Of a stretch of 64,000 nt of DNA, positions 3,605 through 44,161 are shown piece after piece (the first letter of the stretch is position 1; every line of letters begins with the position of its first letter). The position numbers and the translations under genes were made by a program. This stretch comes from Tequatrovirus BCH953P4. The DNA lies in sequence record OZ035789.1. The stretch is one strand, 5' to 3'. Below the pieces are notes generated by a model. It made no database searches and was not told the DNA's origin. It saw only the letters and a list, made by a program, of their open reading frames with translations.

Positions 3605-4062
3605 TAGTAAAGGTCCTCAGAGTAAAGTTCTTTTTCACTACCACGTTCAATACGTACTTGTCCAGCGTAAGTTGCAATAATCATTGCTTCTTCACGTGTC
3701 CAATAATTACTATATTGGTCAATAAACCCTTGGTCATCATCACAAACTTGCTGAGTAACTAATTGAGGTTTAACTACATCTAAAACTTCTGCCATATCTT
3801 TAGAATAATGACGAGCACCTGGAATAACAAGAGTTCGTCCATCTTTTAATTTAAAACGGTTGGCTGCGCAAACAATTCGTCGTTGATACTTTTGGTTTTC
3901 ATCCCAGTACGCAGTCTGCCAACAGATTTCAGGAACTTCTTTCAGAATATCTTCTTCTGTGCATTTATAACCATGCGCTTTAAATTTTTGAACAAGACTC
4001 TCCGGAGTCTCACGAGATAAAAGCACATTCAGCATTTTTAAACGATTAATAAATGGGTTCAT
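3604..4062 (-). CDS. Hypothetical protein (152 aa)
   Basis: ORF track; ATG start. Confidence 0.55.
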
Positions 4063-4388
4063 TTAAACCATCCTTTAATACGCTGCCACAAAGTTTTCTG
4101 CTGAGCTTTGTTAACACCAATTGAGCGAATAACCGGTTGAGATTCCTGGAATTCTTTATAATCATCAAGGTAAATTTCGTAAGCTGCATCTGTAAATGAA
4201 CTTATTGCTGCCATAAAATTATTGCGAATACCTACTGGAGCATCTTTACTTTCACGAATAATCATGTATTTACCAGTCTTAATCTTTACGATAGTTCCAA
4301 GATAAGCTCCATGATACCAGATGTCCCAACCCTCTTGAGTAGGTTCTGCGCAACGACGAAGTTCATTAACGATTTCTAACTTGTTCAT
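4059..4388 (-). CDS. Hypothetical protein (109 aa)
   Basis: ORF track; ATG start; 4-nt overlap with downstream gene. Confidence 0.55.
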
Positions 4389-4398
4389 TATTTATTCC

Positions 4399-5034
4399 TC
4401 ACAGTTCAGATGCTACAGTGATTACAGCTTCAATGTTTTCTGCCGAGCGTTTAATGTCAAGATACACATTACCGTTTTTAGCGATTTTACATGACATTCC
4501 GATGTCAGTAAATTTCTGAATATGATGTTCCATCATTTTATATCCAAAAATTCGCATATTTCCATTGTTGTTAATTTCAAAATTACGAATTCCGTGAGTG
4601 CGTTTTTCTAAAATGGCAAGATAATTACTGCGATAAGTTTCAACCTTTTTAAGAACAAATCCATTTTCATCTAAAAGTTTTAACATGAGGTCTTTATCTT
4701 CTTCCATATCAGAAGTAATCTCGCGAGCTTTACGAGTTGCTCGTTTTTTCAGCAGTTCCGGAGCATTTTCCTGTGCGTATAAAGTTGCTGCATTTGAAAT
4801 AATATCTTGCGCTTCGCCTGTAATGATTAATCCATCACCTGATTTCTCTACCAGGCCTTTTTTAATTAATACCCCAATATTACTATTAACTACTGCGTTA
4901 CCTAAATCTGGATGCACCTCACGAACTTCTGCAGCTGTAATGAAATCTTTCTTAGCAATGGTAATTAAAATCGCAGCAGTTTTTTCATTCAGAACATCGT
5001 TAGAAGCTTTGATGATGTAAGTTACTTTAGACAT
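4399..5034 (-). CDS. motA: Middle-transcription activator MotA (211 aa)
   Basis: ORF track; sequence recognised as T4 MotA; SD GGAG upstream. Confidence 0.93.
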   Translation of the reverse strand: MSKVTYIIKASNDVLNEKTAAILITIAKKDFITAAEVREVHPDLGNAVVNSNIGVLIKKGLVEKSGDGLIITGEAQDIISNAATLYAQENAPELLKKRATRKAREITSDMEEDKDLMLKLLDENGFVLKKVETYRSNYLAILEKRTHGIRNFEINNNGNMRIFGYKMMEHHIQKFTDIGMSCKIAKNGNVYLDIKRSAENIEAVITVASEL

Positions 5035-5161: not shown

Positions 5162-5311
5162 TTACTGCATGACTGTGATAACTGTCATGATAACACGTTG
5201 AATTCCGAACGCAAGAAGACCTCCTGCTACGGCTGGAACAACACCTACCCCCGCTAGTAAAATGCCGCCAGATACTAATGCAGCGCTTGTAATACCAATG
5301 AATGGACTCAT
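5162..5311 (-). CDS. Small hydrophobic peptide (49 aa), ATG overlaps gene 52 stop (ATGA)
   Basis: Hand translation MSPFIGITSAALVSGGILLAGVGVV...; not in ORF track. Confidence 0.4.
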   Translation of the reverse strand: MSPFIGITSAALVSGGILLAGVGVVPAVAGGLLAFGIQRVIMTVITVMQ

Positions 5312-6636
5312 TTGATTTCCTCTAAATCTTTGGTGTATTCGGTAACTACATCAGTAGTTTTCCAATATTCGTTTTCTTCTTTCTTAGCTTTAGCTTCTTC
5401 AGCAAGTTTCTTTGCTTCATCGGAAGTCATATGAAAAATATTCATTCCAACTAGTTTATCAACATAAGAAGAATACATCTCAATTTTAGAAAGTTCTTCG
5501 GTCAGTTCTTTACGAGTTTTACCCTGTACAACAATTTCACCTGAAATTACTTTCTTAATGAAATGCGCCTTGGCAAAGGCTAAACGAAAAGCTGACTCAG
5601 TTTCTTTAATTTTGTTATCAATTCGTTTTTGGACATAAGTTTTACGAACTTCAACGAAGTCTTTAATTAAATCAACTACGTTATCGTAAACTTGTAGTTT
5701 TCCTTTCTCATTAATAACCGTAATATTCTGAGAACGACGCTCAATCAACCCGAAGTCTTTCATAATTTTTGCATGACGTTCTTCTTCATTATCGCTCAAA
5801 GAATATTCTTTGCGGAATTTAACTTTGAATCCAAAACCATGCTCACCACAAGCATCATCCCATGTAATGAAGCCTTTATCTTCAAGTGGGTCTAAGATTT
5901 TACTCACATAAGTTTCACGATCATACTTATACGGAATCTCAGTGATATGCATTTGAGTTCGTGAAGTAAACTTATATGTTCCACGAATTTCATATTGCCC
6001 ATCAATTTCAACGACTTCACCACGAAATTCTGGGAATTCTACCTTCGGTTTAGTTACTTTCTTTCCTTGAAGAGCTTGCAGTACAGCTTTCTTGACAGAA
6101 GAAACACTATGAGGAAGAATGTAAGTTGCATAACCAGTTGCAATACCGGAAACGCCATTAAGAAGAACAGTAGGAATAATAGGCAAATAGAAAGCAGGCG
6201 GAATGTGTTCTTTATCTTGATGTACCGGAGCATATTCAGTATCTTTATATACGTTATAGAAATTTTTACTTACACGAGCAAAAATATAACGACTTGCCGC
6301 TGCCTTTTGGACAGTACGAGAACCGAAGTTTCCTTGACCATCTAACAAAGGAAAGTTATTATTCCAAGTGTTAGCCATCAAAGCACCTGCGTCTTGTGCA
6401 GAGTTTTCACCATGATGATATCCAAGGTCCGCTACACCACCTGCGATAGAAGCGAGTTTGTGAAACTTATCTTTATTTCCTCGTGCCAAATCAAGAGCTC
6501 GAGCAATAACAAATCGTTGAACTGGCTTAAATCCGTCAATCATATTTGGGATAGCACGATTTTCAACCGTGTACATAGCATAAGCCAATGCTTCATTATC
6601 AATGATACTTTTTAAATCGCGATTATTCAGTTGCAT
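5308..6636 (-). CDS. 52: DNA topoisomerase II medium subunit gp52 (442 aa)
   Basis: ORF track; length identical to T4 gp52; position between motA and ac. Confidence 0.9.
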   Translation of the reverse strand: MQLNNRDLKSIIDNEALAYAMYTVENRAIPNMIDGFKPVQRFVIARALDLARGNKDKFHKLASIAGGVADLGYHHGENSAQDAGALMANTWNNNFPLLDGQGNFGSRTVQKAAASRYIFARVSKNFYNVYKDTEYAPVHQDKEHIPPAFYLPIIPTVLLNGVSGIATGYATYILPHSVSSVKKAVLQALQGKKVTKPKVEFPEFRGEVVEIDGQYEIRGTYKFTSRTQMHITEIPYKYDRETYVSKILDPLEDKGFITWDDACGEHGFGFKVKFRKEYSLSDNEEERHAKIMKDFGLIERRSQNITVINEKGKLQVYDNVVDLIKDFVEVRKTYVQKRIDNKIKETESAFRLAFAKAHFIKKVISGEIVVQGKTRKELTEELSKIEMYSSYVDKLVGMNIFHMTSDEAKKLAEEAKAKKEENEYWKTTDVVTEYTKDLEEIK

Positions 6637-17449: not shown

Positions 17450-17950
17450 TTATCTCATTTCAATAAAATCTACGAGTTCAGCATGCGATTTGCGGAACAT
17501 TACTTGGTGCCCGCCAATGATAACTTGGTCATCTGGCACTTCGTATACAGCAAGATAAAATCCTTTAGAAGCTAATTCTTCACGCTCTTCTCGTGTGAAC
17601 CATCTCATCATATCATATTCACTAGCGAAAGCAAAATGATAAAGACCTATAAACCATCCTGGAATATGATATTCTACTCCAACATAATCTTTCTTGAACT
17701 TAGTATTAATTACTATATTAGCGTTTTTAACTAATAGTTTATCTTCGTGTGGTAAAGGAATTCTTTTATTATTATCGCTATGATGCATAAAATTAGGTCT
17801 GTCATAACCTACGTGTAATAGCCACTCTTCGCTCCATGAATCTATTATACTCCTATACGGCGTTATTTGAACACAAAGATTTCGACGTATTGTTATAGCA
17901 TCTTCATAATCAAGAATACTAAACGATGATTCAACACGATAAATTTTCAT
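17450..17950 (-). CDS. Hypothetical protein (166 aa from ATG at 17950)
   Basis: Track ORF trimmed because its first 13 codons overlap the promoter; ATG 17950 has SD GAGGA. Confidence 0.5.
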   Translation of the reverse strand: MKIYRVESSFSILDYEDAITIRRNLCVQITPYRSIIDSWSEEWLLHVGYDRPNFMHHSDNNKRIPLPHEDKLLVKNANIVINTKFKKDYVGVEYHIPGWFIGLYHFAFASEYDMMRWFTREEREELASKGFYLAVYEVPDDQVIIGGHQVMFRKSHAELVDFIEMR

Positions 17951-26239: not shown

Positions 26240-27579
<1,340 letters not shown>

Positions 27580-27634: not shown

Positions 27635-27678
27635 AAATTTATGAAATTTGTGATAAATATTAATTTAAAGGAGGACAT

Positions 27679-27879
27679 ATGGTACAAAAATTAATGGCAC
27701 TTGTTAATGCCATAAAAGGTAATAAAAAACGTATAGCTTTTACTATTTCTGCTATGGTAGGAATTTTACTCTGGAACTTTATTTTATCACCAATTGCAAT
27801 TGCGCATGGTGTTAATATTCCAGTAGTTACTCTTGATACATTCGTAGATCTAGCATTTGCTTTAGTTGGGTTAATTTAA
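27679..27879 (+). CDS. Small hydrophobic protein (66 aa), divergent from the dam operon
   Basis: ORF track; ATG preceded by AAAGGAGGA; two predicted TM segments; stop overlaps gene 61 stop. Confidence 0.5.
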   Translation: MVQKLMALVNAIKGNKKRIAFTISAMVGILLWNFILSPIAIAHGVNIPVVTLDTFVDLAFALVGLI

Positions 27880-29441: not shown

Positions 29442-29735
29442 TTACTCACCTACCACTTCAGCGATGATATTTTTGTTATTAAAGTTTTTATCGCAATACA
29501 GAACATAATTATACTGCATTACACCACCAGACTTAAGCTGTTTTTGCACTTCAGCTTTCATTTCAGGACGATCGCGCTCAACGATATTCATAATATCTGC
29601 TTCAATTTGGGTTTCAACCTCAGTCTGATCTGCAGTCATAGACCATTCACATAAATCTTTATCATAGCCTGCCATAGCAGGCTGAGCAGCACAAGAAGCT
29701 AAAGCAAAAATTGTAGCAAAGATAAATTTTTTCAT
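29442..29735 (-). CDS. sp: Spackle-like periplasmic protein (97 aa)
   Basis: ORF track; signal peptide; T4 Sp length and position. Confidence 0.65.
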   Translation of the reverse strand: MKKFIFATIFALASCAAQPAMAGYDKDLCEWSMTADQTEVETQIEADIMNIVERDRPEMKAEVQKQLKSGGVMQYNYVLYCDKNFNNKNIIAEVVGE

Positions 29736-43403: not shown

Positions 43404-43411
43404 TATAAATA
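43404..43411 (+). promoter_or_regulatory. Late promoter TATAAATA upstream of the plus-strand HNH endonuclease gene
   Basis: Exact TATAAATA 34 nt upstream of ATG 43445. Confidence 0.6.
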
Positions 43412-43444
43412 TGTTTATCACTCGCTGTATCAAAAGGATATGTT

Positions 43445-44161
43445 ATGAATTATAAACTAATTTATGAAAAGTTAATCTCTAATGCTAAATCTCGAAAACT
43501 TGATTGCTATACTGAATCTCATCACATTATACCACGCTGTTTAAATGGCAGCGATGATGCTTCAAACTTAGTAGATTTAACACCAGAAGAGCACTATGTA
43601 GCTCATCAACTTTTAGTAAAAATTTATCCTTCTGAACCAAAATTAGTATATGCTGCTAACATGATGACAGTTTCCACGAAATACGCTAAACGCAACAATA
43701 AAACTTTCGGTTGGATTCGTCGTAAACTCTGGGAAATAGAAAAGAACAAAGAATTCTCCCAGGAGACACGAAAGAAAATGTCTGATGCAGTAGCTAATAA
43801 AGCAAGACTAACTTGTCCTCATTGCGGTAAGTCTGGATTAAGCGGGAATATGAATCGTTGGCATTTTGATAACTGCCCAAATCACCCTAATCCTAAAGTT
43901 AGACCACCAATGTCTAAAGAACACAGAAATAATATCTCAAACGGGCTTAAAGCAATCGTTCTTGAAGAAACATCTTGCGAATTCTGCGGAATGATAGGCA
44001 AGAAATGCGTTATCGCAGCGCATAGAAATTTCTGCAAGAAAAATCCAAATGGACGCAAGAAAACTGAAAAGACTGGTACTTGCGTCCATTGTGGTAAAGT
44101 TACCACTTTCGGAAATTTATCAAGATGGCATAATGATAACTGTAAATATAAACCTAGCTAA
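43445..44161 (+). CDS. HNH homing endonuclease with three zinc-finger repeats (238 aa)
   Basis: ORF track; HHIIPRC...N...H HNH motif; repeats CPHCGKSG...RWHFDNC; opposite strand to all neighbours. Confidence 0.8.
   Translation: MNYKLIYEKLISNAKSRKLDCYTESHHIIPRCLNGSDDASNLVDLTPEEHYVAHQLLVKIYPSEPKLVYAANMMTVSTKYAKRNNKTFGWIRRKLWEIEKNKEFSQETRKKMSDAVANKARLTCPHCGKSGLSGNMNRWHFDNCPNHPNPKVRPPMSKEHRNNISNGLKAIVLEETSCEFCGMIGKKCVIAAHRNFCKKNPNGRKKTEKTGTCVHCGKVTTFGNLSRWHNDNCKYKPS

Follow-up and report, generated by a model that had tools for sequence, protein, structure and literature searches.

An open reading frame (ORF) of 66 codons on the plus strand, at positions 27679-27879 (stop included) of a 64,000-nucleotide stretch of Tequatrovirus BCH953P4 (record OZ035789.1; the whole stretch is hereafter called the window), is almost certainly a real gene that gives a real protein, because its frame, its conservation, its pN/pS, and its syntenic homologues together indicate purifying selection. 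Taken as a whole, the very probable reading of this gene is that it is specific to the Tevenvirinae and encodes a microprotein of 60-69 amino acids in the inner membrane. The ORF is already known in public records, where it appears as a hypothetical protein and as a PHROG; what is new here is the evidence that the T4 reference lacks a gene of late type that is conserved and under selection, together with the definition of its promoter variant, a topology model, and a conserved residue motif. T4 is the reference phage of the whole family, and the findings provide concrete grounds for adding a gene with a late promoter at 17,738-17,938 (plus strand) of its genome.

The curated T4 records NC_000866.4 and AF158101.6 leave the ORF unannotated, with an empty gap of 309 bp between dam and gene 61, and the T2 record (LC348380) omits it likewise; the T4 counterpart lies on the plus strand at 17738-17935 of NC_000866.4. 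Automatic annotations of T4 and of most relatives do include the ORF: phage RB14 lists it as "RB32ORF030w", and hundreds of records of T4-like genomes use either "hypothetical protein" or "putative membrane protein". The UniProt entry for one member (from phage OE5505) is titled "Holin". Literature searches on T4 that covered ribosome profiling, small ORFs, unannotated genes, mapping of transcription start sites (TSSs), and RB32ORF030w brought up nothing on the ORF. A preprint on T4 dRNA-seq gives a total of 150 phage TSSs, of which 22 are antisense (bioRxiv 10.1101/2024.04.04.588121). Transcriptome and proteome studies count only the features that are annotated in NC_000866.4 (PMC9697503); therefore, a gene that is not listed in that record is invisible to such studies.

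The ORF begins with an ATG at 27679, ends with a TAA stop at 27877-27879, and is preceded by a Shine-Dalgarno (SD) sequence, AAAGGAGGA, at 27667-27675, the GGAGG of which ends 4 nt before the ATG; GGAGG, AGGAG, or GGAG is found at the matching place in all 13 lineages compared. Every neighbouring ORF of at least 80 amino acids lies on the minus strand, opposite to the ORF, and the coding range of the convergent gene 61 (stop at 27876-27878) overlaps that of the ORF by the four bases 27876-27879. The original prediction had described exactly these traits, namely, an orientation opposed to the neighbours, a near-consensus SD, and convergent stops that overlap, and all of them are borne out. The encoded protein, which includes the sequence MVQKLMALVNAIK, yields tryptic peptides that are few and hydrophobic.

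The distribution of the ORF is wide within a narrow group of phages. Its protein matches the profile of PHROG 2024 at E = 1.5e-31, with residues 2-66 aligned to profile positions 1-65 of 65, and is found by tblastn to be encoded in 691 phage records, of which 501 show an identity of at least 90%. Since gp61 at 95% identity or more is present in 500 records, essentially every Tequatrovirus carries the ORF. The other tblastn matches are 44-56% identical, and those examined, in Mosigvirus (ST0), Gaprivervirus (TH40 and TH57), and Yersinia phage P8, occupy the same locus in the same orientation. A profile search of 1.84 billion representative proteins yields four more relatives of 22-29% identity; all four are encoded on the strand opposite to their neighbours and converge on the primase gene of a T4-like contig, with the gene 56 cluster on the far side where the contig extends enough. 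A further tblastn search with two of these remote relatives ties the family to Jiaodavirus, Karamvirus, Kanagawavirus, and Moonvirus. Position and orientation are thus constant in at least six further genera of Tevenvirinae at 22-55% amino-acid identity, and syntenic homologues also occur in metagenomic T4-like contigs, down to 22% identity. Conservation in related phages, on which the original prediction had staked the gene, is accordingly found across the Tevenvirinae, to which the ORF is confined on present evidence. Beyond gene 61, the ORF is not annotated in Gualtarvirus, Biquartavirus, Krischvirus, Acajnonavirus, or Klebsiella phage Roth26, in all five of which gene 61 abuts the next gene of the same strand; because it is not found downstream of 61 in these four genera, the ORF is not needed by T4-like phages generally.

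Selection on the encoded peptide is evident in the substitution pattern. The dN/dS of the ORF within Tequatrovirus is 0.10-0.15, and comparisons between genera give a saturated dS and a dN of about 0.42-0.54. Among the six frames, pN/pS is lowest in plus frame 1 in every comparison (0.11-0.16 within the genus), and identity by codon position follows the order second, first, third (0.82, 0.54, and 0.38, respectively). Across the 13 lineages, third-codon-position identity is 0.34-0.40, and the frame, start codon, SD, and length are retained. The other frames over the ORF are full of stops, except for a minus frame that continues gene 61 (27679-27875), which is open for 66 codons in the window, T4, and ST0 and has a pN/pS of 0.17-0.19, nearly as low as that of the ORF frame. 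This frame was rejected as coding: it has neither a start codon nor an SD, it contains a stop in fPS-2 and TH57, and its pN/pS is above that of the plus frame. Its low pN/pS arises because its wobble positions are shared with the plus-strand ORF, and its openness is judged to be a mirror effect and not a read-through extension of gene 61.

The surrounding region is 98.9% identical to the Tequatrovirus genomes slur03 and Lutter, and the order of the minus-strand genes follows T4, namely, soc, 56, dam, an extra ORF of 186 amino acids, 61, 61.1, 61.2, sp, 61.4, dmd, and 41. To the left of the ORF, T4 has dam, fPS-2 has a homing endonuclease, the window has the 186-aa ORF, which resembles restriction endonucleases (REases), and other genera have gene 56, MazG-like ORFs, or small ORFs; the ORF and its upstream box stay together while this neighbour changes. 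Because the ORF and the box are constant and the neighbours vary, the unit consists of promoter plus ORF, and the proximity to dam and a nuclease-like gene is incidental. The ORF had been pictured as facing a dam/nuclease operon, which is real in the window and is not a constant arrangement across phages; a functional link with the dam and REase-like genes was rejected, as the left neighbour differs between phages while the ORF and promoter remain.

The 186-aa ORF itself (27019-27579, minus strand) is start/stop-coupled to dam (26240-27019). Its resemblance to restriction endonucleases of type II is weak: the PADLOC family REase_II matches at E = 9e-5, and Pfam DpnII at E = 0.0045, which does not reach the cut-off. 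T4 lacks this ORF, a member of PHROG 8706, and the record of phage Shinka calls it a "putative restriction endonuclease"; if it were a GATC-type nuclease beside the phage Dam methylase, the two would form a phage-borne pair that resembles a restriction-modification system. As a separate observation, some lineages have taken up insertions at the junction of the ORF with gene 61, and on the opposite flank dam, the REase-like ORF, or seg-type endonucleases are likewise found.

The convergent arrangement with gene 61 raises the alternative that the RNA is the main product, such that late plus-strand transcription reads through into gene 61 and shuts off the primase mRNA by antisense pairing, the peptide being secondary. 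[quoted passage not shown] Against this, the ORF peptide is itself under purifying selection, and the arrangement is broken in several lineages: a homing endonuclease gene separates the ORF from 61 in P8 (locus L010, 2280-3047) and in TH57 (L012), a 124-aa ORF (5204-5578) does so in locus L019, and a hairpin follows the ORF stop immediately in L014, L019, and TH40. Given these intervening genes and hairpins, the family as a whole does not conserve the potential for antisense pairing with gene 61. As the principal function, it is quite improbable; as an added effect in T4-type phages, pairing with the gene 61 mRNA is possible.

Expression of the ORF as a late gene is indicated by the box GATAAATA (27652-27659, plus strand), which equals the T4 late consensus TATAAATA except at its first position (-13). 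From the -13 to -6 placement of such boxes (PMC2988020), a late transcription start is predicted at 27664-27666 (plus strand), approximately 6 nt past the box. The box is followed by TTAATTTAAA, an AT-rich downstream segment as in T4-type late genes, and a promoter of 8 bp on the plus strand is marked at this site in the record of phage Lutter; on the plus strand ahead of the ORF, no sigma-70-like site of any quality was found. The heptamer ATAAATA occurs only seven times on the two strands of the window (1629, 27653, and 43405 on the plus strand; 4395, 25629, 55876, and 57132 on the minus strand), against 42.2 +/- 6.7 occurrences expected from dinucleotide-preserving shuffles, which is a six-fold depletion. 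For six of the seven, an SD and ATG follow at a distance of 17-33 nt; the genes that start there encode Soc, the T holin, endonuclease VII (gene 49), a Seg-like endonuclease of the GIY-YIG type, the 238-aa product of a plus-strand ORF, and the protein under study. Since the genome avoids the heptamer other than at sites of use, chance is an unlikely source of the copy at 27653-27659; together with the presence of a box in all 13 lineages, this lends good support to the original call of a late-promoter-like element.

Read across the genome, the depletion of ATAAATA is a plain sign that late promoters arising in the wrong places are selected against, and the statistic is useful as a criterion for late-promoter calls in T4-like genomes generally. 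Two other copies in the window deserve mention in their own right. The 238-aa ORF at 43404-44161, near genes 45 and 46, is a second plus-strand gene within the minus-strand early block and has a perfect TATAAATA box and no Pfam match. The sole copy that is not at promoter distance lies at 4389-4396 on the minus strand, where AATAAATA abuts the ATG of a 109-aa ORF (4059-4388), just upstream of which stands a 211-aa ORF (4399-5034) that we take to be motA.

Comparison across the 13 lineages shows that the box upstream of the ORF is NATAAATA in 11 of them, with G, A, or C and never T at the first position, and ATTAAATA in the other two; a perfect TATAAATA precedes the ORF in none of the 13. The end of the box is separated from the ATG by 14-33 nt, and a strong SD always follows, in flanks that are otherwise unalignable. 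Among 50 listed T4 late promoters, 32 are perfect and 9 carry A at -13, which is the commonest variant, while the remainder are mostly other single deviations, one of the two exceptions being a TA-to-AT change (PMC2988020). Variant T4 late promoters are active in vitro, and some have mapped 5' ends in vivo (PMC2988020). Given that A at -13 is the commonest variant, GATAAATA would represent the best-tolerated type of deviation. In T4, moreover, early and middle transcripts all run counterclockwise, and late ones run in either direction (PMC2988020); the window has the same orientation as NC_000866.4, its plus strand being the clockwise one, so that the clockwise ORF should be transcribable late only.

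On the strength of these sequence features, expression of the ORF is probably late and gp55-dependent. The gene would be transcribed only late, by the gp55-RNA polymerase, from a sub-consensus promoter of the form NATAAATA (N never T), here GATAAATA, and the resulting mRNA would have a short leader of about 14 nt with a strong SD. That the box is never perfect suggests selection for modest expression, in lineages that are not independent of one another. If the late-promoter reading is true, a change of GATAAATA to TATAAATA should raise expression, and a change of GATAAATA to GATCAATA should abolish late expression.

The protein can be divided into three parts. An N-terminal segment (residues 1-18; 27679-27732), which is predicted to be cytoplasmic, comprises a short amphipathic helix followed by the basic cluster KGNKKR; a transmembrane (TM) helix (residues ~19-42; 27733-27804) holds the conserved W32, N33, F/Y34, and P38; and a C-terminal tail (residues 43-66; 27805-27876) contains an HG-x-x-x-P loop and a short hydrophobic helix with the acidic D53, all three being encoded on the plus strand. 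The TM helix is robust in all 13 lineages, with a 19-mer Kyte-Doolittle score of 1.65-2.66, and is preceded in all lineages by 4-6 Lys or Arg residues. Across the lineages, its apparent free energy of insertion ranges from about -3 to +4 kcal/mol; for the helix encoded at 27733-27804, the score is about 2.0 and the energy about +0.4 to +2 kcal/mol. The last 19-22 residues contain at most one basic residue and 1-2 conserved acidic ones (position 53 is D or E in nearly all sequences), and the apparent free energy of inserting them, summed, comes to +4 to +15 kcal/mol. The Kyte-Doolittle score of the tail is 1.8-2.3 in the T4-type, Mosigvirus, and Gaprivervirus forms and 0.7-1.6 in the other genera, where the summed insertion energy is +7 to +15 kcal/mol. 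An AlphaFold2 model from a 24-sequence alignment contains helices at residues 2-12, 16-42, and 52-63, with a mean pLDDT of 79 overall and of 83-85 for residues 16-42.

By the positive-inside rule, the 4-6 Lys and Arg residues ahead of the TM helix place the N-terminus in the cytoplasm, and the protein is likely to have an N-in topology with a single robust TM helix, as judged from its sequence. Of the two TM segments that had been proposed originally, the helix at ~19-42 therefore stands, and the second is not self-inserting in most lineages by hydropathy and insertion energy; a second span is plausible only in the T4-like, Mosigvirus, and Gaprivervirus forms, and is marginal there. The C-terminal tail is predicted to be periplasmic or re-entrant. 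The proposal of a small late membrane protein is nonetheless supported, both by the robust TM helix with its basic N-terminus and by the conserved position and orientation, the conserved variant box, and the confinement of early and middle transcription to the other strand.

Conservation within the protein is concentrated in and next to the membrane. Over the 24 sequences, W32, P38, and G44 are invariant, and N33, P48, and the tail residues G64 and L65 are nearly so. A conserved Asn within a TM helix is a typical driver of helix-helix association, so the conserved face may serve as a contact surface for the protein itself or for a partner, and it is moderately probable that the protein acts through such a TM or juxtamembrane contact. 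In the proposed mechanism, the protein would cross the membrane once, its basic N-terminus staying in the cytoplasm and its tail of ~22 residues lying at the periplasmic leaflet or within it; the invariant Trp-Asn in the outer half of the helix, followed by Pro, Gly, Pro, and an acidic residue, would form a helix-helix or juxtamembrane contact surface, and through that surface the protein would bind itself or a membrane partner. Searches for relatives outside the family returned none: when the protein and six homologues were scanned against Pfam, NCBIfam, and PADLOC, no match rose above threshold, PADLOC at E <= 0.1 gave no family for the protein or two distant homologues, a sequence-profile search of the PDB gave no match at E <= 10, and Foldseek searches of BFVD and the PDB with the AlphaFold2 model recovered only members of the family itself.

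A small, hydrophobic, and apparently late phage membrane protein may also be read as a holin or a pinholin-type lysis protein. The UniProt name "Holin" for the OE5505 member points in this direction, as does a sub-threshold match of one distant member to a Pfam family of holins with three TM helices (E = 0.1; 13.6 bits against a cut-off of 24.8), and class II holins and pinholins, such as S68 of phage 21 (~68 aa, two TM helices), resemble the ORF protein in size, hydrophobicity, and its predicted late expression. However, no member of the family reaches the threshold of any holin family in Pfam or NCBIfam, the UniProt name is not backed by a profile match, and the class II architecture of at least two TM helices with a charged cytoplasmic C-terminal tail differs from that of the ORF protein, in which one TM helix is robust and, in most lineages, the other hydrophobic segment would not form a TM helix by itself; the basic cluster lies at the N-terminus, and there is no charged C-terminal tail. 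Furthermore, the phage already carries the canonical holin T, the gene for which lies in the window with a perfect TATAAATA box. Since T4 mutants in t do not lyse, there is no place for another autonomous holin. It is thus unlikely that the ORF protein is the holin itself, and its classification as a holin, pinholin-type or otherwise autonomous, is highly improbable.

A terminator-like hairpin on the minus strand, ATGGCAttaacaagTGCCAT followed by the T-run TAATTTTTGT (27694-27713), lies inside codons 6-12 of the ORF, at a site where the fPS-2 record annotates a terminator, and may end gene 61 transcripts ~165 nt past the gene 61 stop; it folds in Tequatrovirus sequences only and is not conserved in other genera, for which reason a minus-strand terminator was rejected as a feature of the family. 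The notion that the ORF is spurious and that the stretch is conserved as non-coding DNA (a 3' UTR and terminator for gene 61 transcripts, and room for promoters of the early genes downstream) can appeal to this hairpin within the 5' end of the ORF, to its annotation in fPS-2, and to the empty dam-61 gap of the curated T4 annotation, but it is extremely improbable and effectively refuted by the conservation data, as the hairpin is limited to Tequatrovirus, the frame, start codon, SD, and length persist in 13 lineages despite DNA divergence to saturation, the pN/pS pattern is that of a coding frame, and proteins of 22-30% identity from the profile search sit at the same locus.

With the ORF read as the gene of a late membrane microprotein, its role can be proposed by analogy. 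The most probable role, held with low confidence, is that the protein would tune a late process at the envelope, for instance the timing of lysis, control of the holin, or the integrity of the membrane. Against such a role stands the fact that the known lysis set of T4 is complete without it; as a modulator of lysis timing or holin control specifically, it is a tentative candidate. A part in membrane-associated assembly would be unlikely on the same analogies, and a late superinfection-related function would be more doubtful still; the remaining probability falls to other or unknown roles. A more far-reaching suggestion, of fairly low probability, is that the protein is a missing component of a classic T-even late membrane process, for example, a TM partner of holin T or a membrane factor for prohead initiation. 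If so, a holin T partner would set lysis timing or join lysis inhibition, the conserved sub-consensus promoter would hold the dose of the protein low, and the unterminated late transcript might also silence the primase mRNA in T4-type phages; the component would have been overlooked in 60 years of T4 genetics and omics because it is absent from the reference annotation. As a conserved late membrane microprotein with the motif Trp-Asn...Pro...Gly...Pro, the family offers a cheap and specific target for knockout and interaction tests, which could bear on lysis timing, lysis inhibition, or membrane-associated assembly.

Among the systems with which the ORF can be compared, PHROG 2024 is the same family over the full length and at the same locus in every record examined, under a label that carries no functional information. 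T4 Imm, a membrane protein of 83 amino acids that confers superinfection immunity, Sp (spackle), and the ORF protein are all small T-even envelope proteins, and the sp gene (29442-29735, minus strand) lies in the same window, 1.6 kb from the ORF. Pfam and NCBIfam profile scans showed no similarity of the ORF protein to Imm, Sp, or any characterized family, so that the roles offered originally (regulator, immunity factor, or exclusion protein) find neither support nor contradiction in homology. The imm and sp genes are on the early (minus) strand, whereas the ORF is on the late-only strand behind a late-type box; immunity and exclusion proteins are expressed early, which shields the cell shortly after infection, and the ORF stands on a strand without early or middle transcription, with only the late-type box upstream. 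In addition, Sp is a secreted periplasmic protein with a signal peptide, whereas the product of the ORF would be a membrane-anchored microprotein. The T4 antiholin RI and the LysA and LysB proteins of phage P2 are small and membrane-tethered, have a short periplasmic part, and adjust the time at which the holin fires; they share with the ORF late or late-overlapping expression, which is predicted for the ORF, and a restriction to phages of the T-even type, and no homology of the ORF protein to RI, LysA, or LysB was found. The periplasmic domain of RI has ~70 residues and binds the periplasmic domain of the holin, whereas the ORF protein would expose only ~22 extracytoplasmic residues and has its conserved residues within or just outside the membrane.
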